64,000 bases of DNA from Cyanidioschyzon merolae (taxonomy: Eukaryota), in NCBI GenBank assembly GCA_000091205.1, contig AP006500.2; one strand, written 5' to 3'. The notes under the pieces are model-generated. The model saw only the letters and a list, made by a program, of their open reading frames with translations, was not told where the DNA came from and did no database searches. The position numbers and the translations under genes were made by a program. This document shows positions 1 to 62,711 of the stretch, in pieces (position 1 is the stretch's first letter; each line of letters starts with the position of its first letter).

Positions 1-590
1 AGGTCATCGACATGAGCCACCGCCTGGCCGTCCAATGAGGCCATCTGTTGGCGCATCGCCATACGGAGTGCCTCCGCGAAGCCCGTCAGGTGCCGGGCGA
101 GGCCTCTGTCCGACCCCTTGTCTAAATGCAGCTCCTCACGAAGCTGGACCAGCAGCATGTGGAGAATCTTTTCAAAGTAAGTCGGCGCCAGCCCGAAAAT
201 ACCATCGGTGAAAGGTTCCACCGCCCGAATGAAGCTCACTTTCGAAGGTGCGCTGTCGAAGAACTGTCCAATCCCATTCTTGGAGAAGAGGAACGTCATG
301 CGTCTCCCGAACATCTCGACAGTAAAAACATCACCGTGCTGTTTCCGTGCTGCTTCCAGGAAAGACTGCGGTGGTGCTGCTCCGAAGGCGAACTGGAACC
401 CTGCTCGAACATAGGGGCACCAACCGCGTATGCACGGCGGTAAGCGTTCCGCTGAGACGTCTCGGACCGGGAAGGTGTCTCCACGGAGTTGCTTGCGTCG
501 CTGTCGCCGCAAGAGCGTCCCTGGAACACCAAAGGTGAACGTTACGATAGCGATCGCAACAATCACGAACCATATAAATACGGGAAACAT
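1..590 (-). CDS. CYP51: Cytochrome P450, sterol 14-alpha-demethylase (CYP51)-like, N-terminal ~196 codons. The gene continues beyond the window start.
   Basis: Manual minus-strand translation from the ATG at 588-590 gives MFPVFIWFVIVAIAIVTFTFG (membrane anchor), a basic stretch, the Pro-rich hinge LPPCIRGWCPYV, then FLEAARKQHGDVFTVEMFGRRMTFLFSKNGIGQFF and later FAEALR. This matches the plant CYP51 N-terminus (LPP..W.P.VG ... GSVFTVNLVHKKITFLIGPEVSAHFF ... FTEALR). The frame stays open to position 1. It is absent from the ORF track because no stop lies inside the window. Confidence 0.65.
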   Translation of the reverse strand, partial: MFPVFIWFVIVAIAIVTFTFGVPGTLLRRQRRKQLRGDTFPVRDVSAERLPPCIRGWCPYVRAGFQFAFGAAPPQSFLEAARKQHGDVFTVEMFGRRMTFLFSKNGIGQFFDSAPSKVSFIRAVEPFTDGIFGLAPTYFEKILHMLLVQLREELHLDKGSDRGLARHLTGFAEALRMAMRQQMASLDGQAVAHVDD

Positions 591-945
591 GCTACAGGAA
601 ATGCCTCGGGTGCTGAGCGAGGCTTGCCGGAGTGCTGTTTCAGTCGGCCTCGCGCCGGAAAGGTTTGACCCGATCAACAACCTGCCCAACCTTGATGCAG
701 CTTCTCGAAGCCGACAGGTAGACTCTATCACTTCCGATGAGTTCACGGTTACAGGGAAGAAGTGTGTCCGAGAGAAAATCTTCGTGCGAGTCAGAGTCCG
801 CTACCAAGATATTCAACGAAAAACTCGCTCCTCTCCCGCTGCGTTTCGTCGAATGCTTTTTCGCTGTGTATCGCCGGAGATCGAATTGCGATACAATGCA
901 CCCGGTCGATCGTAGACGAATGGTTTCTAGGATATCTATTCTTGC

Positions 946-2252
946 TTGAACAATGCAAGGAGAATTGCATTCCTCCTTCAGATCAGTCGGGTCGCAGTGC
1001 TCAGATGGTTGAGGAGCACTGGAAGAAAGAAGTACATGCGCTCCGTACCAAAAACTGACATTTTTAAAGACTGCTTGCCGTCAATGGTGGTCAACGGTCC
1101 CTCGTTCACCTCACGGAAAGCAAAAGCGACGATAGTGGCCACCACGGACATCTCTATTTTGCAACAGCTTGCTCGCATGACCTTGAAAATACTGGGATAC
1201 AATCCCGGAAAAAGCCCTGGTTCACGCACCGCTACTCTCCACAGATATTGCCCCTAAGGAGTTCGTGGAATGCCGCGATCGGTATAAAGCACACGGACGT
1301 GTATTTGTTTTCAGTCGATGAGACTTTCTTGGGACGAAACCGTCGAAGCTTATATGGGTATTCGGGGAGCAGGGCCCCCGTTGTAAATACGATCGAAATC
1401 GAAGAGAACGACGACAACATCATCTGTTCTAGCTCCGGGTGATTCATTTGGCGACCTCAGCTTCGCTCGTAGGCAAGGCGCATACAACAGCACCAATCAC
1501 TTTGTCGAATCATAGAAGACTTTTCCGCTGACGTCTGGGGATGCTCTTCTATTGGACAAGATGACATTTCACCATTCACCTTGCGTTCAACCATTTGCCG
1601 AGTCTATCGATGGTAGAGCTGCTTTTCATTCCTCCAAACCCTGCCCGATTCAAGCCCATCGGATGAGTGTTTTCGGTTGTGGAACGTAGTGATCGCTCCA
1701 CTGGGCGAATTGCTGAAGCGTTCAGCATACTCTGATATCAGGGCATATTTCTCATTTCTTTCGCAAGTCCTTCTCCATTAGAGAAGGAACTTCCCTAATG
1801 AAATAAATAATTGTGTTCATTTGAAGAAATCAGAAACCCAGAAGAAAGTTATGGAACTTGAAGTCCGGGATCCTGGAGGCATGCTGTCGCTGGCTGAGGG
1901 AAAAAAGAAACCATCCTCTGCTGGTCATCCATCAAGCGAAGAAGAGCACTTGACGAAGAAGATGAAGAAGATAGGAGATAGGCGAGCAAAGATATCTGTC
2001 CGACGGGACGATGACGAGACTGTAGTGGCACAGACGGCGCAAGTACTCGTAATCTTTGCATTGGTAAGTTTAAATAGCGGCAATAAATGTACGGATTTCG
2101 TGAGCCGAGACTTCAACGCTGCCATCAATATCAGCCGATGTGCGGTGCTAGAGACACGACCTGAGGAGCTAACCCAAGCAAACTTTGTGGAGCAGCCTCT
2201 CAGGCTTGAAGTGTACTGGGCGAAACTGAAGACGATAGCGGCCGGCCGGTGA
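946..2252 (+). mobile_element. Degenerate Tc1/mariner (IS630-superfamily) DDE transposase remnant, split by frameshifts and stops over three ORF fragments.
   Basis: ORF 946-1257 carries an HTH-like ARRIAFLLQISRVAVLRWLRSTG and a GKSPGSR stretch, compare Tc1 KPGSGRPRK. ORF 1248-1442 carries KHTDVYLFSVDETFLGRNRRSLYGYSGSRAPV, compare the Tc1 first-Asp region KHVWSDESKFNLFGSDG..RRPVGSRYSP. ORF 1821-2252 carries RRDDDETVV ... SRDFNAAINI, compare Tc1 QQDNDPKHTS ... SPDLNPIENLW. All three are on the same strand and in N-to-C order. The region is visibly AT-richer than its flanks. No terminal inverted repeats were found by eye. Confidence 0.4.
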
Positions 2253-4046
2253 AAAAGGCCCAGAGGCGCCTGTGAGAAGGCATATAGACGCTACGGTCGT
2301 AGAACGTTTATCTTTTTCTTGTCCAAATACATACATCAGATGAAAAAGGAGCTCTGGAACTGCACGCCAGCTTCCTACGTCTCGATTTTATTCCGAAGTT
2401 GAGTTTAGATGCACATCCTCGACGTTCAACGTGAAGCAATACGCACTTACTAATGCATTCGCAGTCCTACGATCCTGGGTCATCTATTCGGAGCGAATCG
2501 TTCGCTTCTGTGCCGTTCCTCATGGTCACGTCACCGGAATCAAGAGGATTCGCAACGCCCTCGAAAAAGAACGCCCTATATACCAGATATCGTTGCCCAG
2601 TGCACACGTCCAAACCCCGATTCCTATGCTGTCCGTTCGTGTGCAGCATGCTGCAACCGTGCATGCTTCAAGTTTTCTAGCGTGCGGTTGCAAGGCAACT
2701 CGTGGGCCCAGCAAGGCGCCCAGCTGCATGGACGCGGTAAACTGCGCGATGGCGTCCCTCGGGGACTCGTTCACGAGCTCGTGTCCAAAGTCCACTGAAA
2801 CTCTCAAGTCAAGTAATCGATGCCTCTCGACAGAGAAACGCTCCTCGCTTTGCGGCCAACGAAGAGACCGCGCTCGACAGCAGCAATCGAGCCATGGCAG
2901 GGTATGTTCGTGGCGGCTCCGTTGTGTCCTGTTCGCATGAACAAGTGCCTTGGACTGGGGCTTGCGTCACCGCAGCGATCGCTTCAGGGGAAGGGCGCGT
3001 CACCGCTTTGCTCGAAGCGAGCGTAGACGGATCGAGATGCGTCGACATGATCTCCAGCCTGGCTCTCCCTCGTGTACTTGTTGCATCATGATCGGCGTAG
3101 CGCTGCGAGAATCCTCTACCAAATGGGGCAGCGTGCACCTGCGCATTCACCCGACAGAAGACGCGAGGACGGCATCGCTCAGAACTCTCCAGGTATCTTG
3201 GGGCACGGCAGCGAGCGCGGAAATGGAGCAGGGCATCCAGAGCAGCGCCTCCTGTAACCGGATCATGGGCATCTACCGAGATACGAAGCAAACGTTTACG
3301 CGCCGCAGGGCGGCGCTCGTCGGAAGACGTATGCTAGGCATCTGGAAACACCTGACCAGAGCCGTTCCACGGCTCTGCGCGTGTCGCACCGAGCCGCCAG
3401 AGCGACACGATGGGAGCGGCAAGCGCCATAGAGATCGCAGGTACCAGCTGTGCAAGCGGTACGCGAGTCAGACCACGGAATCAGCCTGGTTGGGGCTTGT
3501 ATGCTATCACCAGCATCCTTCGACTGCTCGTATCGAGATCAGGGGGACAGGAGAGCCTGGCGTATGGAAAGTCAGACACCAGAGACGGGCAAAGCAAGCG
3601 GACTCGGAAAGAGCCCGCCACGACCTATGTCGATTTCAGTGGAAAGAGGCCCAATGCATGGAGTACACGCCCGTGTTCGCTGACCTATTCCATTGTATTC
3701 TTACACGGGTGTAGACACATCCTACCAGCACCTACGTCGACCATTTGGATCCAAGGGAATCGCTGCTTAGCATTGCAGTAAAGCCTTCATCAAGCACCAC
3801 AGATGAGAGAAGCGTTTTGCGTTTATCGTGGTTTCGGCAATCTTCTCTGCAGCGGAGACCAGAGATGCACAGCAGCGTATCGAATCGTAACCTACGTTGC
3901 CCTATTTGAGCCAAGTACGTTGCTGCTTGTCATCGCTCCAACGCTTTCTGAATTGTGCGCGCCAAAAGGATGCACCTGATTCTATCGGGAACATGGCGAT
4001 GCCTCCGGCATCCGGCCTACAGCAGTGGCGACCAGTCACGGTTGTC

Positions 4047-5168
4047 TCAGCTCCAGCGCCGCCACCACTTACCCCAGAGGTACTGCAGGCTCCGCGAGGG
4101 TCCAGCGGTGATGAGACCCTTCACTGCCTGTGAGACAGAACTATGTAACACGCGACGTCGCAGGAGACCTCCAAGTGCTCGCGCGAAATACTCGATCACG
4201 ACTGGACCTTGAAACTTCCTCAGAGCTGCCGAGTTTTGATCTCGCAGTCGTTGCCGGATAGCGTCCTCCGCCTGAATGTTGCAGAAGAGCGGGAGCTGCA
4301 GCAGCGGGCCTAACAGACGGTTGCGAGCCCTATGCCCATAAACATCGGTCTGAAACAGCATCGATATGTCCAAGAGATCATCAGGTCGCCAGGGCAACGC
4401 CTGCTCGGGTCGAGTCGCTCTGTCTCCGGCACCTAGACGCTGGACCAGCCCTTCCCGTTGCATCTGCACCAAAGCGGTAGTATACATTCCAAGCAAGCGG
4501 TCCATATTCGCGTGAAGGATGTTTCGCGTCTTGTTCGGATGTTCAAGGCCGGAGCGCATTCGAATATCCGCCGAGTAAGAGAGGCCAACGACCTGCTCAA
4601 GCAGGGTCGCAACGGGGAGCAGGCGGGGGCCCGTGTCCGCTTCTGCACCCAGTAAGATACCCATCCGAACCGCTTGCACAAGGTTGTGCCTCTTGTTGGC
4701 TTCGTCGACCCGTCGAGCACACGCCTCAGCTTCGACGCGGGCCATATTCGATAGAATAATGAGCTCAACAGGTTTCTGCAAACGTCCGGCGGCGTAGAAG
4801 TAACGCCATTCGCGAATATCAGCGAGCAATGTCTCTTCGGCGATGACGCCGTACTTGAGTGCCTCCGCAGACCGGGACGCGAGCGGTACCGGAGGCACGA
4901 AACACATGCCCGCGCCCAGGTGCTGGAGCCAACGGAGAGCTCCTGGCCGTGAACGCAGGCTCCGAAGATACCAGGCAAAGTGCTCTGAATGGCGATCGAG
5001 CGCTTGCAACAACCATTCTGCGGGGTTGTCGACCACCAGGATGTAGTCGCGGGTGCGCTGGATCGCCAGCCGGCCTCTAGCGAGCTGCGGAAACACGCCT
5101 GAGCCGTAGGCCAGCACCAGCTTACCAGTTGGCAACGACTCGAGAAACTCCCTATCCGCCTCGTTCAT
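4047..5168 (-). CDS. TAM41: TAM41/MMP37-family mitochondrial phosphatidate cytidylyltransferase (CDP-DAG synthase).
   Basis: 373-aa ORF with an ATG start at 5166-5168. Contains LAYGSGVFPQ, DYILVVDNPAEWLLQ, KYGVIAEETLLADIREWRYFYAAGRLQKPVELI, as in the Mmp37 family. Confidence 0.65.
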   Translation of the reverse strand: MNEADREFLESLPTGKLVLAYGSGVFPQLARGRLAIQRTRDYILVVDNPAEWLLQALDRHSEHFAWYLRSLRSRPGALRWLQHLGAGMCFVPPVPLASRSAEALKYGVIAEETLLADIREWRYFYAAGRLQKPVELIILSNMARVEAEACARRVDEANKRHNLVQAVRMGILLGAEADTGPRLLPVATLLEQVVGLSYSADIRMRSGLEHPNKTRNILHANMDRLLGMYTTALVQMQREGLVQRLGAGDRATRPEQALPWRPDDLLDISMLFQTDVYGHRARNRLLGPLLQLPLFCNIQAEDAIRQRLRDQNSAALRKFQGPVVIEYFARALGGLLRRRVLHSSVSQAVKGLITAGPSRSLQYLWGKWWRRWS

Positions 5169-6635
5169 TCCTAGCTCGACCTATGGGGATACGAGCACAC
5201 TAACTGCCATCGCAAGGCAACAGAGCGAGACGTACGGGCTGAGTCGCTCACCGATCCGAGCTGCTTTCCAGAACACACCGGTAAAACCGGTCTTGTTGCG
5301 ATCTAACAGGCGCGGTTGCAGAGCGTGAACGTAGGTACAGGTGCAGATCAGCAGGAGAATGACAATCAACAACGAGTTAAAGTTGAATAACGCTGACATG
5401 AACGCTTTCGGTGGGAGTCGTACCGAAACGCCCGCCGCACCGCAGCAGTTCTCGGAAGCGAGCAACCGGGCACGCCAGCGCCTTCCGGGACCTCGACCGT
5501 ACGACTCCGAGTCGGTTGCAGCTCCGATCGCGATGATCCTTTCCTCCCCGGTGACCAGTTCACCGCTGAGACGCGCCTATCCGGCACTCGTCCGCTGCTT
5601 GCGATGGCGAAAGCGTCGCGTCCAAGGCGGTACACGTGTCAGCGCTGGAGAGTAGCAACGCGCCCCGGTATGGGTTGACCTGAAGGTTTCGAGTGCGACA
5701 ACGTCGGTTGCTCGTCGTTGTCACCAGAAGTTGACAGTCGGAAACTCACTGGAACAGAGGTATGCGCAGTGGTTCGTGTTTAGGACCTGCAGTTTTATAA
5801 CTGAGTGGATAAACGAGAATGTCTTGCAATCCGCAAGCAAGTCCGCGTAGAGAGGGTGCCGCGAACCTTGTTCGGCGTACGAGAGTGCGCTGACCCCGAA
5901 ACCCCCGACAAACACCATTCACGACGTATCGCTTGCACTTGTGCTCTATTTTCGTTGTAGAGAGAACAGTGTAAGTGTAAAAACAGTGCATGGTGCGGCT
6001 GAAACTCGGATTGCTGTTGCCAACCGCTGATACGCGCATATCCGGTGGTTCCACCAAAGGTGCACGCTCCGCGAGCCAGCTAACCTCTGCACCGATAGTT
6101 GCTGCTTGCCTGTGCATCTTCATCTGCGGGTAGTTGAATGATACTTCGATCTCGCCAGTATATGCAGCTCTGCACTCTAGAGATAGCGGTGGATAACTCT
6201 TTGGAGCTAAACGAAACTGTCGGCGAGACTGGGTCAGATGACGAGGCACGCCCGAGGTTTCGATCGTACGGCGAGCGCTTGCCCCGCTTGGTTTATTTTC
6301 AGAGAGCTCGCGTCGCTGCCGGTCAACGAGCGGTGCGATTCGCGTACACCACATGTATCCTCGTTAAGAGGCGCTTGTACAGCGCCCCGACTGTACTGTC
6401 TTCGTGTCGAGCAGCGCGGAACTCTAATCCAAGTCAAGAACCTATGTTCCGTGTAACGCACGAGTTGCCACTTCCCCGTCGCCTCTTTCTCTCGCGTGCA
6501 ACAGCCTTGGATTGGATCGATGGGCAACACCTCTGGATGTAACGGATAGGCGACATTCTCGCTTCATGAGCACTGCAATACATAGACAGGTTCACTTTTG
6601 AGATCCTGAGTGTATCAGGAGCTTCTCCTCGTTGC

Positions 6636-7931
6636 TCACGTTCGCTCCCGAGACGGCACATCGGTCGATGCCAGTGGCGCACTCGAAGCCGCTTGGACAA
6701 TGGTGTACCATTTTTGGAAATCCTCTGTGGCGAGCGCCTCGGCTATGAGCGCCTCTGTCTCCGCGCTTGGAGCAATCAACGGTATCGCCTTGACTGCGAC
6801 ATGCGTATCCGCGGGTAATAGCTCCCGCACCGCTTCCCGAATAAGTGTTTCTGCTCGGTGGCGGCGGTGTTCCGCGGCTACGGGCAGGGCACGGGATCCT
6901 CGGCAGTGTCCAGCGGACACGTTGGCATGTTGTGCTGCTTGCTGCTGGAGCTCGCGCTCCGTCTCCAGATACGCCCGCTCTACATCAGCGCCGCTGATCG
7001 CTACCGGGAGCTCAAGCCACTGAGCATTCCACGCTGGTGTGCCGGGATTCTCGGGACGTGCACAGGTCGACGCTGTCTGGCAAAGTGCTTGCTCCAGTGA
7101 GCGCATTCGTTTCCGGAACGCTGGATCGTCGAGCAACCGAGCGCAGACCGCCGGATCCCAGCACGACACAGCTGATCGCTTCGAGAGCTGATGTCTCTGG
7201 TGCAGGGCCTGCGAAGTCAGCAACTCTAAACAGAGCTGCACGCGTTTGTGCTCTTCATCGAATAGAATGGATGACGCATCGCATGCGTCATCGTCAGCGA
7301 TAATAGTGGACGCTGGTGCTGTACCTTGCTCCGATGTTGATGGTGTCTCCAAAAACCTTTCAATGAGCTTCCGCGGATCCCCGTAAAGGCGCACAGATGC
7401 TTGTCGCAGCAACTCTTCATCGGACACTGATAGCGTGACGCCCCTTCCAGTCGCTGAGCGGCTTTCGCACCTGGGCAGTGGACACAGTGCGGACGTGTCT
7501 CGCGCTGGTGCCGACAAGCCGGATACTTGCTCGACAGGCACTGAAGCCGGCTCTCGTCCTGGACTTGGTAGGCTCTCTTTTTGCTGAGAGCTTGCGTCGA
7601 GCACTCTCGTCAGTTCCGCAAAGCGTTGTGCACAAGCGTCTGCTGTTCGGCCCGGCAGCAGAAGCGCAACGGTTTGCCACTGCCCAACCAGCGAGCGCCC
7701 CACCTGAAGCAGCAGCCGGTCTTCCTGGACGGTCCAGTTCCCTCCGCCTTTCAAGCTTGGATCAGCAGAACTGTAAAAGTGCTCCTGACACTGTAGAGCA
7801 GTTTTCCCTGGCAAGAGTGAAGCTATTCGGCGCCACTGATTGGTTCCGCAGACTTCGACTGCGGCCCGCAGGACGAGCTCTTCCGGCAGGCTCCAGTCCG
7901 AGGACGATCTCAGGTGGAAGCGGCGGGTCAT
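6636..7931 (-). CDS. Myb/SANT DNA-binding domain protein with two tandem Myb-like repeats near the N-terminus.
   Basis: 431-aa ORF with an ATG start. The repeats are WSLPEELVLRAAVEVCGTNQWRRIASLLPGKTALQCQEHF and WTVQEDRLLLQVGRSLVGQWQTVALLLPGRTADACAQRF, with the W/W spacing and LPGRT...C motif of Myb repeats. The rest is low-complexity. Confidence 0.5.
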   Translation of the reverse strand: MTRRFHLRSSSDWSLPEELVLRAAVEVCGTNQWRRIASLLPGKTALQCQEHFYSSADPSLKGGGNWTVQEDRLLLQVGRSLVGQWQTVALLLPGRTADACAQRFAELTRVLDASSQQKESLPSPGREPASVPVEQVSGLSAPARDTSALCPLPRCESRSATGRGVTLSVSDEELLRQASVRLYGDPRKLIERFLETPSTSEQGTAPASTIIADDDACDASSILFDEEHKRVQLCLELLTSQALHQRHQLSKRSAVSCWDPAVCARLLDDPAFRKRMRSLEQALCQTASTCARPENPGTPAWNAQWLELPVAISGADVERAYLETERELQQQAAQHANVSAGHCRGSRALPVAAEHRRHRAETLIREAVRELLPADTHVAVKAIPLIAPSAETEALIAEALATEDFQKWYTIVQAASSAPLASTDVPSRERT

Positions 7932-33232: not shown

Positions 33233-36200
33233 GAGCAGCTCAAGTTGAGTTTGGACGGTAGGTATGGCACCCAAGCGGCGCACGAAAATGCCAGCAAAGC
33301 GAGCGGGCGCGTATCGAACGGGTTCTATGGCTGGAGCCCGAAACGTTGCGGATGCGTTATGAGCCGCGGGCCGGGTACCTGCTGATTTTTTTTGGATGAA
33401 GGTAAGAAAGCATCAGAAGCGCAACGCGGCTCCTGATGTGCTACATGCTGATATGCGCAGGGAAAGTTTGGCGCACGCTTAACTTAATGTAAAGCATGAG
33501 GAGTAATTGAGGATGTTCTCGTTCTTCCCATTGCTCTTTGCGGCGACAAGGCAGACCTTCGAACGCGCTGAATGCTGCTGCTGTCGCTCAAGTGCTATAG
33601 TTCATGGATTCGTTGCGATGCTCGCGTCATTCCCGAAGCTTGGATACGCGCGCTCGTCTGCATGAGAGAAAGGCCTGGGAGCGTCTTCGAATACCACGTG
33701 ACCGTGTCATAGCAGCGGCTACAAATGGTTTTCTCTGACACCCAGCAGAAAGCGTAAAGAAAAGCAATGTCTCCCTAGCGACCGCAAAAGCGATGAACGC
33801 TTGCTCGCGGACGCGGAGAAGGATCTGCCCATGTCCGCGCGCCTGCCGCTAGGGTTTGCTGACTCGCCTTGCCAATGGCCTTCACTAGCAAGCTGCCGAG
33901 TTCAACGTTTGGTTTGCCTAACCATGGACCTCTGAGTTGCTTTGCGTGCGACCTACGCCAGACAGTAGCTCGCAACCTTAAGTGGTGTAACTGGCGATAG
34001 TACGCATTCTTGGTACATGCGCCACTAGAACCAGGTAGAGACCTCCATGAGAGCCTCGTCACTGCAGCTTGAACTGAGAACACTCCTATTCGATTTCGTT
34101 GGACCGCGGGATTGTCTAAACAAAGCACGAGATCCTCGACTGCGCGATGTTTAACGTCGCAGCAGTGAAGTACGGAGCACCCGCGCTAGCACGTCGTTCT
34201 TGTTTGATTTGATTTTCTCGCAGATATTCTTCACAAGGAATGCTTCCAGTATCTTCAAGAAAAGTCGCTGGGATGCTTTATACTGTCACAGCTGGCTTGC
34301 GAAAATTATCGGCCTCTTACAAGCAAGTTATTCCAAATTCAGTGGGTGGACAAACCTTCCGCCTCGTCGTGCATATGCACGCCGTCATGCGCCCAACGCA
34401 GAACTTTTCTTTAACTCTGTTTACACAACTGTATCTTCGTCAATCCATTCCATTCCGTACCTTGTCTTCGCGAGACTGCCAAAGAAGCCACGCGATGTGA
34501 AGTTCATGTTCCGTTGACTCGATCGCTGACGAACAAACACGGATGGACGAAAAAAAGCAGGCTTCAACCGGAAGCGTCCAGCGTTGAATACCACGCTATC
34601 GATATCGGGCGGAAACGCGGATGCGCATTTCATGGGTGACGGGCATTCGTCTCACTCGATGACACTTCACTCCGGAGATGTCGTCCACCGGTAGATGGGT
34701 ACACAAAGGGCAGCAAAACGCCGTTCGTGAAACTGAGACATGCAAGCATGACGACAACATCAGCCCTGGCCGCGGTTCGATCACATGGTTATCGACAATT
34801 CGAATAACGCGCAAGTTCCTACGAAACCTGATGCTTCGTCGAAGCACGCTTCGTGGCTTCTCACTGCGATACGCTTCCGTCCTACTCTTCGATAATGTGA
34901 CTTTCGATCGTTCAAAAACGGTCAACAAGTAAACAGGTGAGATTGGCACTGAGCGGCGCATCGAGCTAGCCTATTTTCCCTGGTTCAGTCCAGTCCACGA
35001 AGCCTTCTCTGTTGTCAAACGCCTCGTTTATGGCAACAGATTCATAGACGAGTCGTTCGCATCCGTGATCCCTTTCTTCGGAAAATCGTTCTGTACCTTT
35101 GTTAGCCCTGAGCTGCTGTGCAGGCGCTATGATCATGCACGGGAGAGAGAGAGAGCTTATGCACTTCGGTTCATGGGCGTGCTCGTGATGAAGAAAATGA
35201 CGAAAATGTCGGTAAGAAATAGGCGATACACGATTAGAGAAGGCTAGCTTCGGGAAAAACGTCCAGCCAGAGTTCCGAAGAAAGAACGGTTATGGAGTAC
35301 ATCAAATACTGTTACGCAACCCAGCCAGGTAAAGGAAGATGGGAAGACGGGGCTGGTCTCTGCGAGTAGATACGAAAGATGCGAACAACCTCACGAAAAG
35401 CATCTGCGATGCTCATTCAAGCTTCCTTGTTTACGGAGAAGAAATGAAAAGAAGTTTACCGGGAAGATGCGGATCGGCGACATGTCCATCTGCATGCACT
35501 TCATGAAACCTAGGCCTACATCGAGCAACGGAGCTTATTTCCATTCATTCAAGGCAAATGAAGAGCAAAACTTTGTGATGAGCATGTATCCCGGGTTCGA
35601 GGAGGTTACAGCGGCCGCCGAACCCTGAAATCATGCGCATGGATCAAAAGACGTCAATGGAAAGCAAGCCAAGCGGCTAAACGGTTTCAACATTGACTAG
35701 TATAGAGAGTCGGGCATGGCAGACGCCAGGACGCATACGAACAAGAGGAATGACGGCGTCGAAAGTTATCTCGACGTTCTGAGCACCGCATCGAGCATGG
35801 CGTTATGCTTTGTATGTCTCGTTCGGAGCGCATACAAGTGTCCAAGTTGCACGTGCGGACCGTGTTTCGTGGACATGGACAACACAGAGCTGGAGTCGCC
35901 AATGACGTGCATTAGACGGGGTATGAAATGTGCATCCACCAACTGGCTCAATATCCAGGGAGGGGATATAAAAGACGCATAGCATCGTTTGATGGTGATA
36001 GCAAATTGCACTGGACGTGCCGTGGTACGGAATGGGTGGACTCCTGCATTCTCGCCGATAGCGTACCACGAGTGCAGAAATCGGCTCTGCTCAATTCCCG
36101 TCGATGCGGTTACAGCGACATACACACGTCATGAGCACGGGTGAACGCTCTGACAGACACAGAAGAAGAGTTTGGAGCGGATCCGTGCGCTTGAGTTTTG

Positions 36201-37540
36201 TGCGAGGTGAGCCAACCGAGCATCCGATGCCGAGGCCATTAAAAATAAAAAGGCTCGCTATGGAGTTCTTCGATCGGCAACTATATCCGCGCAAGCACTT
36301 TCCGCACCAAAACGTGACCGCTCCGATTAACATTCGAAGATGTCTCGTACTTCAGAAGCGTCCGGTGGCTTTACGTCGAGCGATTTTCTTCGATGCAATC
36401 ATTCTGGACTTAGTGTAGGTATTGCGCTGAAATATACAAGACTTGCGTTGAAAAAATCAGTGGCCAAGAGCGCGAGCTTGGATTCCCGCCTGGAGCAACC
36501 CACAGGGGTGGCACGGTTCAGGAATCCAGCAAGGCTCCAGTACCGCGCACATCTTTCCACCTGAAACGATTTCTATGGACAGTCGGTAGACGATCATCAT
36601 ATTCCATTATTCGATATTCCTAGCAATAAAATCAGCTCGATGCGAATTGCTAGCCTATATAGGTGCACGCGAAAGTGAGCAGCGCTCTTTTGCAACCTCG
36701 CGCGTCTCGGATGCGTGCAGCGCCTCCGAAGTGACGGATTTCATGGACGCTCGTGACGTCCGATTTTTCCATGGACAAAACGTCTACATTGGCCAGCGTG
36801 CTCCGATTACGCGCTTTTATCTTCTTTCTTTTTTTCTGTGTTTTTTTGCAGTGCGCGGTGACGTCCGATCCGTTTCCGACACATGCTCAGATACGCCGCA
36901 ACTCAAACTCAGGGTAAATTATCTCATGAGCAGTATTCACTGGTAACTTTGAAAGATCACTTCCAGCCGTAACAGCTACCGCTTGAGAATACTGAGGCAA
37001 TCGCATTGCCAGCGGCATCTGGAGCTCAACGACGCCATCGCGTTGCCGATCCTGGAACTTGCCTCGCTCTCCGAGCACGCAAAAGTCGCTCCGTCTCCGT
37101 GCGAGGCACGCGCAGTGGCCGTCGATGCAGCGCCGTCGCAAGCGTCCACCACAGGCGCGCTGGGAACACCCATATCAGTAGTGGATCCCTCCAACTTCTA
37201 TTTCAAACAAGAGGCCCGTTCTACACCTTATGGAACGTACTGATCTTTAGAAAGCAAGGATAATCCTATTTTGGACTGCTGTTCGGCATGATGCATCCCC
37301 AGGGTGCTCCTTCAGATCGTCGACCTACCAGCGTCCAGCAGCGCTCGCGAGTACGCGGCAGTGTGCGCGCGCTTGACACGCGGCCCGCGACACGCATCGC
37401 GTTCGCCAACGAATCTGCATCCGCACCTGTCACGTGTACTGACGAGAAACGGGGCGGGTAGCAACGCCTTTGGACGGAGGGTTTGTGTTTGCTGCTCGTT
37501 GCAGCCGTTCTGGGTGCACTCAGTGACTACGTGACTGGAG

Positions 37541-41781: not shown

Positions 41782-42893
41782 GGACCCGTGACACCACACG
41801 CAGCGCTGCTGGAGCAGTACGCACCCTGTTTATCGCACACGATCGCTGCGTCTAACCAGACCCTGCCCGCTCCGATGGTTTTGTCGACAACCCGAGAACG
41901 AGACTAGCCCAGATACCCTACGATATTGAAACGGAAGCGTGTATATGTTTGTGTTTGCCGGTCAAGGGTAGCCAGGTTGCTAGCGATCAACGCGCTGCTC
42001 GAATGCTGATAATGAGCGCATCGTCAGCGATCCGCTGCTTCTTGCCGCAGGTGGTAAAGCGCACTTGCACAAGCACGAGCACTCGAATATTTCACCAACC
42101 ATATGTACTCGTTTGACACAACGTTTACATAAATCATGAATTCCCGATTGCGTGATGCATCTTGGCATTCGAGTGAGCACTGATCATGCTTCACATCTAC
42201 CTCCAGGTACCCGGATGGAAACTTGCTCTCGGATGCGCCAGCTGGTCGATGATTGTGCCTGCGCAGTCGCAGGGCCTGGGGCGAGGGCGTCTACCGGCGC
42301 CTCTGCAAGGCTGAGCTGGAGGTCCTCGCTCCGGGCACTAGACTTTGTTTCATGGAGGATCTCTGAATCTAGACAGGGATACCCGAGTCTGCCACTTTTT
42401 TATCTGTCTGTGTGGGAGCAATCAGCGATCCGTCGCCATTCGGTTGTGTTGCTCTTGTTTCAGCCCAGACTTGTGCTCCGGGATCATGGATATGGCGCAC
42501 GCTTGTCGCGCAGCGGCCTGGAAGGACACTGAGCGCACGAAGCGCCCTCAAAAGGTTCTCCGCATCGAAACGAGTGGATATGCGGTTCGAGCGATGCTGC
42601 AAGCGGGTTGTACATTGAGACATCTCGCTTGAGGCATCTGGGCTGACGCTCCTGGCGTTCATCGCCCAAACGGGGGAAACCAAGCCTCCGAGCAGAGACA
42701 CGTGCGTGCTGCGTATCGTTCACAAACCACGAATTGCACCGATCCGTCGCATTCTGGACGATAATGACGCCTCCAGTGGGCGCCTGCATACGGTTGCTGC
42801 GCGCTTTTCCAGGAGCCCGAGATACCTGCGAGGCGGAGGCGCTCGACAGAGCTACCCGATGTGCCGCAGCCTGGGGCGCGTTGGCGAGACCCG

Positions 42894-53960: not shown

Positions 53961-56270
53961 GACCGTTTATATTGCCTGGGGAATAGCACCCACAACCAGT
54001 CCAAACCGGTTTGACAATGCACATCGACGTTGTGACACGTGCTGTAGTGTTGGCGATCGTGGTGGCGTGTGCCCTGCGTCCAAGATCGCCACCGCATCGC
54101 GTGTCGAGCCTGTAGCGTGCCACGTGTCCCATAGAGGGAAAAACGATGCTGTGGAGGCCCTCGGTGCCACGACGCTGCGCGCTAGGGACAATACTGTACA
54201 TGTCGTTGATCGTCTCCCATACCAATTGTGTTCCACAGCCCGGTGCGTGTCCTGAAATGCTTTTTTAGCAGATCATAGCAGATGCGATCGAGTTGGGTTC
54301 ATTTGAAGAAATAGAAAATCTAAGGCAAAGTTGTGGAGATAAGCGCAGGGGATCTCGAAGAGCCGATGTCGCCGAGTGCAGGAAAAAGCCGAAAGGAATA
54401 CCTTCTCGTCGGCCATCGATCGGAGATAAACAAGCGACGGCGACGAGGAAGAAGATGAGAGGGGAGGAGATCGTCGAGAAAAGGTATTTACTCGACGTCA
54501 TGATGACGAGATTATAGCATTATAGAGGGCATGAGTTTTAGGCATCCTTGCAGCGGCGCGTTCAGCCCGCGTCAATACGCGCATAGAGTTCGTGAACCGA
54601 TACTTCAACGCCGCTGCAGATATCAGACGATTTGCGGTGCTGGAGGCCAGTCCCTGGTAGCTCACGTGATCCAACATTGTGGGGCAGCGTCCCAGACTCG
54701 AAATGTGCCCAGATAAACTGAAACTGATGGAAGGCGGCCGGTCGAAAAAGGCTGGGAGGCGTCTTCAAGTCGCCGTATATGCATACCCCCCGTGGTCGTG
54801 GGGCATTACGTTCTTCACTGAACACAGATCGGAGCGCGCAGATCGTCTAGTCTGCTGTAGAGAAGAGAGGCATGCGAGCCGTTCTCGGTGTTCAAGCATT
54901 AACGAGTCGCTCGTACGCATGGACACGACAACGAGACGTCGAGCACGAGGCAGTGCATAGCCATATGCGTCACTTTCGCACGCGCGTGCACGTAGGACAC
55001 GTTGTTGCCGCGCAGAGGACAGCGAGGTATCTAGTCTGAGCCAGTGGATAATCCAATGGGCCGTTTTCGCATTTTTATGCACGACGGGATGCTGTCTATT
55101 AAAACGGACTGGCGCGGGTACGCGGACGCAGCCGGTCGTGAGAGCGGAGTCCACAGCTTCCCTCTAGGGTATTTGTGGAAACGACCGTCTCCCGCACAGA
55201 CTTATGGTCTAGAATGGAGCATTCGGCTGGGGAAATCTCTGATTCCCTCGCAGGCGTGGAACGGGCACTGGACACAAGGCCGCGATGGTCGCGCGCTCGA
55301 AGGCCGGAGGGTTTCACGATACCCTGACGTGATCCAGCCCGAAGTTTCGGAACACTGCCAACTGAGGAGCGTGCACACACAGGGTGCTCCTTGACTTGCG
55401 GTACTGGGGCGGCAAGACGGCAACGATTCGGATTACATGGAAAACGGGTTCGGGCGAGGCGCTTCGGCCTATCATGATGTTTGTGCTGTCGTCGTTGTGC
55501 ATGGCAACGAAGTGCGGGCCCGTCGGACGGTAGAACCACCGCTCTCCAAAGCGACAAACCTCACCACCATGAAAACCCGCGTACGGTGGCTTTTCTGCAT
55601 CACCAGTACTGATTCGAGGGAGCGCCTCCCTGAGGCTTCGGTGTCCCGGGCGCGATTCACTTTGCCTGCGCGGTATTCCGGGCCCAGCGCTCGCATCATT
55701 CATTGATTAGGGTTTTCTGGCAACTTGCTTGTTGCTTGCATGAGCGGTGCGCGCTCTGGGTATGAATTCCGGCATCAAGCCAGGGTCGACTTGCGTATAC
55801 GGTGCGCCAGCTGCTCCGATCAAACATGCAATGCAGCGGAATGTTCGGTTGACGTCGCGCAGCGCTTACAACCATCGGACAAGCATGACGTTGATGCTTC
55901 CGGCACTAAGTCAGAAAGAGCCGTCTCCTGCATTCCAGTATGAAGAAGGCGACAGGGACAACAAAGACACCAGTTTACGGTTCTGGTGAACAAGTTTTCG
56001 AACCGATGCCCCAGTGGCATGAGAAGACCGTTCGGTCTCTGTGCTGCACACGCTCTGGTGCTACAGGAGCTATTGCAGACGCTCAAGGCAGGCTTTGTGT
56101 GATGTAGAGCGTACGAATGACCAATAACTTCAAGGGAGAGTACGAAAAGGATATGGTGGAACTCGGATCTAGAGCTTGGAATAATGGACGCTCTCTCGGA
56201 GGCCGATCTGCTTCTAAGACTAGGTTATCTCTAGTCTCTGCAAACGTTCTGTCCATGAGGAGAGCAATAG

Positions 56271-58514
<2,244 letters not shown>

Positions 58515-59916: not shown

Positions 59917-62711
59917 CGACGTGCGCTTTGTCCCGCAAGACTCGGAACCCAGTGTTGAAGCGGAATTCTCGAACGCAGAGCTGCTGCGGATCGTCCGTCG
60001 GACGTGTTGACGCCGCGTCGCGTCACGTGACGTGGCGCCGCTCCGATGCGCATACGTTATTTACAATAAAGTACAAGTTTTAACCTAGCGTGCTGGGAGC
60101 GGTACAGGGACTCTCGATTTCTGGAAATTTATGGACATTGGCGTGGGCCTTCTCATCGGCGGCGTGCGGCTGGACGCCGCTAGGGCGCATCGCACGACAT
60201 TGATGTCCGTATAGAATGGAGCTGGTCCACGTCATGATCTCGGGCGAACACGCAAAAATTTGGTTTTCTACTGTTGGCATGAACACGGGCCCTTGCGGGC
60301 TTTCTCTGGGACTGCTCCCTTTTTGCCATTCTAGGCTCCTGCTTAACATGCATCGGTATCTCCTGTGCCTCCAGCTCCGTTGTCCGTAGTCGAAGCACGT
60401 GGATGGCAGCGTTAAACTCGCGACTAAAGAGCGAAGGGCTGCTGCTCGCGCATACGCGATTATCACATAGAAAGTTGTTATGATCTAGGCGTCGCTTGCC
60501 ATTTTCATCTTTTTTGTTTGGAGCCTAGATTCGCGCTCCGGAGCGTGAACATTTGATTTGCTCGGGTGTGCCACATATGTCCACCAATGCCCCGCATCCT
60601 CCTCCGAGACCCATACTGTGGCGCGTGAAGGCTTGTTTCGTCGCTCAATACATGCCGTTGATGAGCACAGTGGGCTAGCATCGATACTCTCATCTGTTTT
60701 CACTCCAACCGCCGAACCTGACGAAGGGGGTTTTGTTCAGAGCGCCCTCAGTGCATACTATGTGGGGTGCTCATGCAAGCGAACGCTGTTCCATTGGATA
60801 CAAGCTTTCCTGAACGCGAAGCCTTCCATGATGAAACATTTACTTGAAGGAAAGCGCAAGCAGGCGAAGAGATGAAGAAACTTCCATCCGTCTACGCTCC
60901 GTTCATGCAAAGCGATGACCTGCTCTCCACTGGAAGCGATCGCCCCAGCGATGAAATATCGTGTGCAAGCCCGTTTCTTGACTAGCACAAGAGACGCCAG
61001 CCAATTAGATGTTCTCTTATGAACGGTTTTGCGCTGCTTCGGAATGCCGTTTGTCGATGGTCGTGAATTTAGAAGTAATTGTGTTTCGAGTGGGCTCCAT
61101 TATTTTATGTGGAAGGTTCATCGAGTTTTCGGAATGAGTTTGTGAACAAGTCGCCATTTTGAGGACGTCGAGTGCCTTTCACTGTCAATCCAGAGGCCCG
61201 AATGGCTGTACCCACGAGTTACCTTGAAACAGAAAACTCGAAAAATTGAACATTGCATGTTTTCAGCAGTCTACAAGTGCGCAAAAGAGAAGCGCTGATG
61301 TTTCTACACATGCATTGGATGATGATATCGGATCGAATGCGAACCCCTATTCGAGGACTTGGAGAATTTTCTTTATGAAAGTGACGTAACGAATTCCAGA
61401 TGAAAGAATCGCGGAAGCAGCTCCGAAATAGCGACCGAGAATCCTGAAACTGCACGCTCATCCGAAGGCCCTTCATCCTGGACTTTTAATGCCTAGCGGG
61501 TAATTCTAAAACCAGCTCGAACATGGACCCAAGTACAGAAAGAGATCATGCAGTACAGTGTTCCATTTCCATCTGACATGGCATTGGATACGCGCCACCT
61601 TCTCCAAGCAAGGTTCAGCGAGCCGGTAGCGCATGCGGATCCAGCGCTCCATGCAATTCCTCATCGGTGAATACCGACCGACGACCCGTGAAGCGAATCT
61701 GCGATGCAGTCCAAACACGATTGCAAGGGCGAGGCTCGGTGCCCAGGGACTCGTCCTCATCGGCGGACTTGTCCAACGCCTCGGGCCGCGGAGACAGGCC
61801 TACGTACGCAGCCTGTCCGAGCACACACTGACGTACAGACGCGATTACGCATGGGGTGAAACATTCCTCGAATGGAAACATTCAGCCGTATGGCAAAGCT
61901 AGTGCGTCTCCGAGCTGCATTCGCAGTGTCGGTATAGATGACATTGCGGATGTGCGCGGCAGGCTCTGGGTACGGTGTCCATGCAAAACGACCATCCTGC
62001 CCGCCATAACTGTACGGGTGATGGCTCTCGGACCATGAGGTTACAGTGCGACATAATAGACACACTCCCATATGCCGGTACTCATTGCACAGTCGCAGAT
62101 TCCTGGTTCTCGTAAACGAATATGCAAGGAGATATCCCGCGCGCCGCTCCTCTATGCATCGATTCCGCCACAGAGCGCCTGCAGCGGGGCACACACCCAG
62201 CGACCCCGTTCACGGAATAGCTGACTCGAGCCTTATCACCACATGACCAACCCGTATTCTATTGTAAACGGAGAGCGAAAGCATGAACGCTGCGAGCCGT
62301 TACTACCCAACGCTCTCCGGCTGGTCGATGACGTCCTGTCTTCCGCGTGCAGCGACGCAGCTGTAGACGAAACGGCGCGCGCTACGCATACCCTGTCGCA
62401 GTGTGGATTTTTTAATCGGACAGAACTTTTGCACAGGCCAGCGTTCCCCGACTGTGCGCTTCATATCAGCGCATGGTAAAGCATCCATCATTCCACGCCC
62501 TACTTCCAAGTTCCACTACCAATACTTCCTCTCAGATATACCAGTCGTTTGATCCGTTCTATCGTGTGCCGGGTGCATGCCCTGATCATCGGCGATAGCG
62601 CCTAGAGCGCCGGAGCGCGCTGCCGATGCGCGCGTCGCCGACGCCGCATCCGTGATTCCACGTTTCAACGCGCTCACACGAGCGATACGAAACCTCACCT
62701 GTTTTCACTCT

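Follow-up and report, generated by a model that had tools for sequence, protein, structure and literature searches.

The stretch of DNA analyzed here, in the following referred to as the window, comprises 64,000 nucleotides of the Cyanidioschyzon merolae genome (contig AP006500.2, assembly GCA_000091205.1). It is intron-poor and eukaryotic and contains, close to its left end and adjoining a P450 gene, an island of low GC content: positions 806-2334 have 48.1% GC as compared to 56.5% in the left flank, 57.1% in the right flank and 56.0% in the whole window. An earlier note, made from the sequence alone, had pointed at this island and read it as a frameshifted Tc1/mariner-like transposase fossil on the basis of three motifs, an HTH-like (helix-turn-helix-like) one, FSVDETF and SRDFNAAINI. 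The difference in base composition is real, and the three motifs do lie at the place given, on the plus strand and in different frames separated by stops. They do not, however, stem from a single gene. A transposase pseudogene harboring the first two is followed on the same strand by the remnant of a gene for Fanzor1, a TnpB-like nuclease of eukaryotes, containing the third, and both reside in a block that recurs as a unit at other loci. We conclude that the segment from about 808 to 2323 is very probably a dead, internally deleted two-gene cut-and-paste transposon of the IS630/Tc1/mariner type with a Fanzor1 gene. Its features, all on the plus strand, are as follows.

808-2323, plus strand: composite element, dead and non-autonomous; the block common to 7-8 independent copies, with bounds accurate to within about 15 bp
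808-840, plus strand: left terminus, a decayed relative of a terminal inverted repeat (TIR); in the consensus, TA followed by GTCTTTCAACTCAATTTTGTTCCACC
934 to about 1790, plus strand: IS630/Tc1-type (DD34E) transposase pseudogene in three frames with several stops, detected by tblastn
955-1011, plus strand: HTH-like motif ARRIAFLLQISRVAVLRWL, aligning with LRKTAxLLQVSHxTVxRW of intact relatives
1308-1373, plus strand: region of the first catalytic Asp (D141), with FSVDETF (1308-1328) and YGYSGSR (1353-1373), aligning with S.DETsFGRN...YGYS
1546-1575, plus strand: region of the second catalytic Asp (D218), LLLDKMTFHH, aligning with LLDNvxFHHS; DDE_3 profile positions 80-116
1619-1663, plus strand: region of the catalytic Glu, LLFIPPNPARFKPIG, aligning with PPYSPWFNPIEGVFS (E253); the Glu itself is lost
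1851-2252, plus strand: internally deleted Fanzor1 remnant of the CMe-1 family, CMe-1 residues 1-55 joined to 640-733
2103-2132, plus strand: SRDFNAAINI, the RuvC-III (RD) motif of Fanzor1, aligning with NRDFNAAINI in CMe-1 and FVNRDQNAAINIRR in the Fanzor1 of contig L088
2253-2323, plus strand: 3' untranslated tail and decayed right terminus, matching the CMe-1A consensus at its 3' end (...GCAGCGTTTTTCTTTTGAAAGGCG)

The transposase part is recognized in the unprocessed DNA. When intact DDE_3 proteins were compared with the raw window by tblastn, P0004 matched with E=4e-30, P0014 with 5e-21 and P0018 with 1e-13, and these matches are therefore independent of any choice of frame. That of P0004 covers 934-1602 and 1613-1732 in two frames. 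Pieces of the window and a protein stitched together from them yield E=1e-3 to 7e-3 with the DDE_3 profile (PF13358) and E=6e-4 with the IS630 profile (NF033545), which falls short of the cutoffs, and a search of the stitched transposase against 5.8 billion proteins gave no matches, decay having gone too far in this copy for the word index to pick it up. The earlier note had proposed to look for further copies in order to build a consensus, and this was productive: the majority consensus of seven copies from different loci reaches E=5.2e-17 and 62.5 bits with DDE_3 (cutoff 28.6) and E=4e-28 and 98.7 bits with IS630, just short of the equivalog cutoff of 100. It retrieves 43 proteins, mostly DDE_3 transposases of about 300 aa (best E=5e-68), and restores the motifs FSVDETFFGRNGRSLYGYS, LLLDNVVFHHS and LLFIPPYPPWFNPIEGVFSIVKR with 34 residues from the second Asp to the Glu. 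A comparison of the consensus transposase with solved structures by sequence gave no match. HTH profiles respond weakly and below their cutoffs (HTH_33, E=1.3e-3; HTH_Tnp_Tc3_2, E=0.011), and the intact relatives score similarly weakly.

In these relatives, the catalytic triad is D141-D218-E253 (numbering of D141 according to P0018), which maps to about 1317, 1555 and 1660 in the window. The window copy has kept both catalytic Asp residues (1317, 1555) and has lost the Glu, its reading frame being broken; the Glu region reads FKPI-G and then runs into a stop. LLLDKMTFHH and LLFIPPNPARFKPIG are pieces absent from the earlier note that came to light when all frames were read. That note had named the absence of any DDE_3 or HTH match as the outcome that would speak against it; DDE_3 matched, and the proposal of a frameshifted fossil from the Tc1/IS630 superfamily (ITm) has held. 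Judged from its sequence, the window transposase is a member of the ITm superfamily by descent and not an active enzyme.

The second gene belongs to a family already described from the same alga. CMe-1A/CMe-1 is a Fanzor1 family of C. merolae with about 150 copies, a 3,169-bp consensus (CMe-1A) and a 734-aa protein (CMe-1) (Bao and Jurka, 2013; PMC3627910); consensus and protein were taken from the supplement of that paper. CMe-1 matches the window with residues 1-55 at 1851-2027 (E=7e-7, 49% amino acid identity) and with residues 640-733 at 2016-2294 (E=1e-19, 50% amino acid identity), and the Fanzor part is about 71% identical to CMe-1A 2840-3083 at the nucleotide level. The reading frame is open over 133 aa from an ATG or 143 aa from an upstream TTG at 1821. 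The RuvC-I Asp (GADPG) and the RuvC-II Glu (VDEFRTS), present in full-length family members, fall into the deleted residues from about 56 to 639, and the window copy is thus a fragment of a Fanzor1 gene and not a Fanzor1 nuclease. RRDDDETVV was considered as a RuvC-II motif and rejected, as it represents the Fanzor N-terminus (RRQYDEMVV).

The open reading frame (ORF) at 1821-2252 has three relatives in the protein database. One of them, P0001, is 98% identical to the window remnant and is an annotated gene in two related assemblies, L001 and L002 (JGI samples 3300050357 and 3300050359), which are 98-99% identical to the first kilobases of the window; the contigs related to the window stem from hot-spring-type metagenomes. 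Another, P0002, extends upstream into LIDEFRTS...C, which resembles the RuvC-II motif of TnpB/Fanzor proteins. Against Pfam and NCBIfam, the window ORF as well as intact CMe-1-like proteins give only E of about 0.1-0.2 at the end of Cas12f1-like_TNB. The prokaryotic TnpB profile (OrfB_Zn_ribbon / Cas12f1-like_TNB) yields E=0.0085 to 0.25, always under the 26.3-bit cutoff; the matches mostly cover the last 10 profile positions, and SRDFNAAINI is the only part they touch. The remnant is not classed as prokaryotic TnpB (IS200/IS605 OrfB). A comparison of the window ORF with solved structures by sequence gave no match. Pfam is blind even to intact members and the profile match to the Protein Data Bank (PDB; see below) is weak; we therefore assign the remnant to the family by way of its published description and of pairwise matches to canonical Fanzor1 proteins. 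CMe-1 itself matches the canonical Fanzor1 proteins VCa-1 (E=3e-13) and CRe-1 (E=1e-5). A metagenome scan with a three-sequence alignment found more than 369 loci of the CMe-1 family. Some of these have frames that stay open over 600-780 codons and contain VVGADPGNTN, VDEFRTS and NRDFNAAINI. Just upstream of the RuvC-I motif GADPG, full-length frames of the CMe-1 type (L012 3183-5519, L014, L035, L026 and others) feature a variable number of tandem repeats of about 20 residues (…KHEE.KEA.PATQKVQDND.VVDA…). Of the four cysteines of the zinc finger that would be expected between RuvC-II and RuvC-III, most appear, on inspection by eye, to be missing from these frames.

The transposase sequence recurs, always in decayed form, in contigs of cyanidiophytes (L005/6, L007/8, L015/18, L020, L034, L080/81 and L090). 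At seven independent loci, i.e. the window, L005, L007, L015, L034, L080 and L090, a C-terminal CMe-1 fragment comes within 100-300 bp after the Tc1-like part, in the same orientation; at a weak eighth, L020, a downstream N-terminal start and C-terminal fragments are faintly seen (E=2e-7 and below). The eight junction loci span at least three sample groups. The alignment to L005 (69%) covers window positions 948-1825 and 2026-2266, and homology runs through the transposase part, the junction and the 3' part of Fanzor, while the flanks are unrelated. Two types of deletion derivatives can be distinguished. In type A (window, L007, L015, L020 and L090), Fanzor residues 1-55 are combined with residues from about 640 to 734, whereas type B (L005, L034 and L080) contains Fanzor from residue 611 or thereabouts onward. 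Each type has sequence that the other lacks, and we therefore infer that both arose from a longer ancestor with transposase and Fanzor1. All derivatives keep the last 100 or so Fanzor codons together with the 3' end (about 330-450 bp).

Apparently intact elements of such a layout exist outside the cyanidiophytes, in environmental eukaryote-like and giant-virus contigs. In L088, genes for a 297-aa transposase (DDE_3, E=4e-25) and a 623-aa Fanzor1 that aligns with CMe-1 residues 52-694 (E=2e-90) lie on one strand with a gap of 92 bp. They are enclosed by TIRs of 29 nt (1059-1087 and 4085-4113, 25 of 29 positions matching) with TA on both sides, resulting in an element of 3,055 bp. Inverted repeats are also present in L095 and L097, and the pair of genes was also found in L089, L095, L096 and L097 (E=4e-19 to 2e-94), in L087 and in the viral contigs L098-L100 from IMG/VR (GVMAG-S-1092401-23 and UViG 3300045974_000323), two of which (L099 and L100) are giant-virus metagenome-assembled genomes. 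The viral contigs with the pair are AT-rich, the two giant-virus genomes having 23-36% GC. Among 11 transposase relatives with readable downstream DNA, nine are paired with Fanzor1, the two without it being L094 and L101. Transposase and full-length Fanzor1 lie on one strand in L088, L095-L097 and L098-L100, and the intact relatives have the two genes within a single pair of inverted repeats, with 0-160 bp between them. In L094, the related transposase adjoins genes for Peptidase_S74 and DUF5906. L088 features a third, solo inverted repeat of the right type (AGGTGTAACACAATTCACTTTGTCGGAGTAC) at 914-945, about 115 bp upstream of the left end of the element and after a run of CAATCAAGA repeats, which may have been left by an earlier insertion or may represent a miniature derivative.

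The ends of the window element are set by the conserved block. In the other copies it starts with (TA)GTCTTTCAAC and ends with ...ACTGAC; the window reads GATATTCAAC at 808 and ...CTTGTC at 2323. Compared with the composite consensus, the window is 81% identical over 1,432 bp. The left end of the consensus resembles the TIR of L088, CACTTTGACCAGTCAATTGTGTTACACCT, and that of L097, with TGTTACACC as common motif. TA precedes the left end in three of six composite copies. In the window, the left flanking dinucleotide reads AA (806-807) and the aligned right position CA.

Several points weigh against this interpretation. The frames of the stitched window protein and of the consensus protein were chosen by hand. 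The window copy is devoid of a recognizable TA duplication and of a right inverted repeat, such that its ends are placed by alignment only, and a search for inverted repeats inside the window copy and L005 yielded nothing convincing. For an RNA structure at the 3' end, RNAalifold applied to 34 3' ends returned a covariation term of -0.1 and a single compensatory pair, but as these ends are too similar to each other and partly coding, this does not show that a structure is lacking; a search of the retained 3' segment against Rfam matched no family. No full-length copy with transposase and Fanzor1 was found in any cyanidiophyte contig, and the ancestral state there hence has to be read from intact but distant relatives (38-46% identity) and the two types of deletion. 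Finally, the abundant CMe-1A of C. merolae has a different 5' region and no transposase, and most Fanzor copies in this lineage are therefore not in the paired configuration.

Two further Fanzor1 remnants lie in the window.

54262-54774, plus strand: second Fanzor1 remnant with the N+C deletion, interrupted by stops and lacking a transposase part; 66% nucleotide identity to 1811-2271
35362-36388, plus strand: third, older and heavily decayed Fanzor1 fragment, CMe-1 residues 343-697 (tblastn, E=3e-23)

The first of these matches CMe-1A 840-967 and 2898-3089 and CMe-1 residues 646-729 (E=2e-15). It is conceivable that the remnant beside the transposase is still functional, either as a domesticated mini-Fanzor protein of 133-143 aa or through a 3' RNA that serves as a guide scaffold in trans for a full-length Fanzor. 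The uninterrupted ORF, its annotation as a gene in two related assemblies and the retention of the last Fanzor codons and the 3' end in every deletion derivative are in line with this idea. The copy of the same structure at 54262-54774 is broken by stops, though, two of the three RuvC residues are gone, and neither covariation nor Rfam lends support to an RNA structure. Moreover, the ORFs of the window and L001 differ by three nucleotides (two amino acid changes, one silent), a rate equal to that of the surroundings (99.2% identical). Retained function is thus very unlikely.

Less probable still is that an old Tc1-like fossil and an unrelated CMe-1 fragment became neighbors by independent insertion. 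CMe-1 fragments do occur alone, namely at 54262-54774, at 35362-36388, in L003 and at L001 6502-6975, and CMe-1A itself comes without a transposase. Chance does not readily account for the identical junction and orientation at eight independent loci from at least three sample groups, for homology continuous across the junction and for intact relatives that hold both genes 0-160 bp apart within one pair of TIRs. The original proposal of one Tc1/mariner transposase gene with the HTH-like motif, FSVDETF and SRDFNAAINI as its motifs appears highly improbable. In its favor, all three follow one another in order along a single strand, and an IS630/Tc1 transposase is indeed the source of the first two, but the transposase alignment stops at about 1732-1790, with the second Asp at about 1555 and the Glu at about 1660, and SRDFNAAINI is situated some 150 codons beyond the Glu site in a segment that matches CMe-1 640-733 and aligns with RuvC-III of full-length Fanzor1. 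It can thus neither be the third DDE motif nor have the spacing claimed for it; TnpB/Fanzor had been among the families put forward for profile checks, and Fanzor1 is what was found. The three motifs are, as far as sequence matches go, more than chance, given the E-values of 4e-30 for DDE_3 proteins against the raw window and 1e-19 for the SRDFNAAINI ORF against Fanzor1. Matches of the three fragments to unrelated families had also been anticipated as a counterargument. Literally this is so, the families being transposase and Fanzor1, and yet both belong to one two-gene transposon. Hardly any credit remains for the notion that 946-2252 is one decayed TnpB/Fanzor gene with the Tc1-like motifs as its degenerate N-terminus and RuvC-I region: the distance from FSVDE to the RD motif (about 264 codons) is inside the range D-X(125,275) given for Fanzor/TnpB (PMC3627910), but the consensus passes the DDE_3 cutoff, nearly passes that of IS630 and retrieves DDE_3 proteins of about 300 aa, and the Tc1-like part has no similarity to CMe-1 56-639 or to the 5' region of CMe-1A.

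A two-gene transposon that has decayed thus remains our preferred explanation. ITm transposons are mobilized in cut-and-paste fashion by a DD34E enzyme at TA sites, and RNA-guided cleavage by TnpB/Fanzor proteins probably favors retention or homing of the element. The intact element would comprise, in this order, TA, an inverted repeat of about 29 nt, a transposase of about 300 aa with HTH and DD34E parts, a gap of 40-160 bp, a Fanzor1 of 620-870 aa, an inverted repeat and TA. Going by what is known of the two families, the transposase would bind the inverted repeats, excise the element and reinsert it at TA, while Fanzor1 together with an RNA from the 3' end of the element would cut matching DNA and thereby probably favor retention or homing. 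Gene order, TIRs and TA duplications are directly observed in the intact relatives, as are the inactivating lesions in the window copy. In the cyanidiophyte lineage, the element would have decayed to derivatives of about 1.2-1.5 kb that consist of the left part, the last 100 or so Fanzor codons and the 3' end. In the window copy both genes are dead, the transposase by frameshifts, stops and loss of the Glu, and Fanzor by the absence of residues from about 56 to 639. The low GC content of the island would be due to the foreign, AT-richer transposon DNA.

L001 and L002 carry genes for CpeS, SRP19, a P450, Tam41 and Myb, the P450 gene being the neighbor of the element in the window.

1-590, minus strand in the window: P450 gene (PF00067) with its start codon at 590; the full gene corresponds to L001 7283-8770

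Its best matches among solved structures are CYP7A1 (E=1e-19) and CYP51 (E=1e-14). The label CYP51 that had been attached to this neighbor could thus not be verified; similarity to CYP51 structures is only distant and the protein may be a different P450 related to sterols. Beyond the gene, about 1.2-1.7 kb upstream of window position 1, L001 contains a decayed Fanzor1 fragment (6502-6975; CMe-1 residues 534-697, E=4e-20), and the P450 gene is therefore bracketed by Fanzor remnants. To the right of the element, window 2335-3710 (1,376 bp, equivalent to L001 10516-11891) is present in a second copy at L001 735-2110 with 98.8% identity. The duplicated segment starts within about 12 bp of the right edge of the element, and the other copy lies upstream of the window start, at a distance of about 7.4 kb. 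The segment encodes an ORF of about 208 aa without Pfam match and has relatives with 64-69% identity at window 60775-60943 (minus strand) as well as in further contigs of cyanidiophytes. Immediately before the upstream copy, the DNA bears a faint likeness to the 3' end of Fanzor. The duplication may be due to gene conversion or to a second mobile unit. Elsewhere in the window, a stretch of tandem repeats that is open in several frames on both strands (56220-56709) precedes an ORF resembling ketol-acid reductoisomerase (56760-58514).

For annotation, our findings mean that a defined transposon remnant takes the place of a hypothetical 143-aa ORF and of a low-GC spacer next to a P450 gene. For the Fanzor field the addition is modest: at eight loci, relatives of CMe-1 are in physical linkage with an IS630/Tc1 transposase fossil, and the intact pair with inverted repeats and TA duplications exists in environmental eukaryote-like and giant-virus contigs. 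This offers a testable origin for the CMe-1 family as well as compact, apparently intact transposase-Fanzor1 elements for experiments, such as that of L088 (3,055 bp). Tentatively, CMe-1/CMe-1A may descend from, and may once have been mobilized by, an IS630/Tc1-type DD34E transposon of a clade that almost always carries Fanzor1 and is also found in giant viruses, a possibility that we rate somewhat below even chances. If it applied, a virus-mediated arrival of Fanzor1 in Cyanidiophyceae would be plausible, and the retained 330-450 bp or so at the 3' end would represent cis elements, i.e. the right end and a guide-RNA scaffold, that were still needed for propagation.

Among known systems, IS630/Tc1 (DD34E) elements share with the composite element the layout of a putative HTH plus DDE, the DD34E spacing in the consensus and the YSPxxNPIE motif and, in the intact relative, the TA target and inverted repeats of about 29 nt. 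The difference is the passenger Fanzor1 gene. Fanzor1 from Spizellomyces punctatus (SpuFz1, PDB 8GKH), which according to work by Saito and colleagues from 2023 is said to be an RNA-guided DNA endonuclease, is the top PDB match of a CMe-1-family profile in two colinear segments, with an E of 0.33 that is not significant. Both proteins belong to the same class in the classification of Bao and Jurka (PMC3627910). In contrast to SpuFz1, the CMe-1 family seems, again by eye, to be devoid of most zinc-finger cysteines, and the guide RNA is putative here.

The occurrence of Fanzor1 within Mariner/Tc1 elements, virus-borne ones included, is already published, the examples being PUl-1, PUl-2 and PUl-4 from Pythium ultimum and PGv-1 from Phaeocystis globosa virus (Bao and Jurka, 2013; PMC3627910), and our analysis does not reveal a new kind of system. 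In those elements, a Mariner/IS630-like transposase gene is followed by Fanzor1 on the same strand within inverted repeats flanked by TA duplications, and the same layout is seen in the intact relatives of our analysis, part of which reside on giant-virus contigs. The transposases of PUl-1 and PUl-2 from Pythium, when compared directly, show weak similarity; with PUl-2 the relation is distant, the stitched L005 protein being 20% identical (34.7 bits) and colinear over 232 aa. Unlike the PUl and PGv-1 elements, the element described here has a Fanzor partner of the CMe-1 type, and the copy in the window is a short derivative that arose by deletion and in which neither gene is functional. Among the papers listed in the literature library searched, neither Tc1/IS630 elements in cyanidiophytes nor a link of CMe-1 to a transposase were found.

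The closest counterpart is CMe-1A itself. CMe-1/CMe-1A was published without TIRs and without an associated transposase, its classification being given as unknown, and the first part of CMe-1A is common to a separate repeat, TE-N2_CMe (PMC3627910). Fragments with 73-75% identity to the initial 270 bp of CMe-1A lie in the window at 62419-62617 and 42114-42235 (plus strand) and at 55982-56093 and 61855-61924 (minus strand), and the TE-N2_CMe repeat family thus also resides in this genome. Where the window element has the transposase pseudogene, CMe-1A has a 905-bp 5' region, the first 635 bp of which are TE-N2_CMe; an equation of this region with the Tc1-like stretch was considered and rejected for lack of any similarity. 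The Fanzor part of the window element, by contrast, is a diverged member of the CMe-1A family, and the 3' terminus is common to both. Our observations suggest that what is added to the published picture is a cyanidiophyte representative of the paired elements and a likely origin for the hitherto unclassified CMe-1 family.

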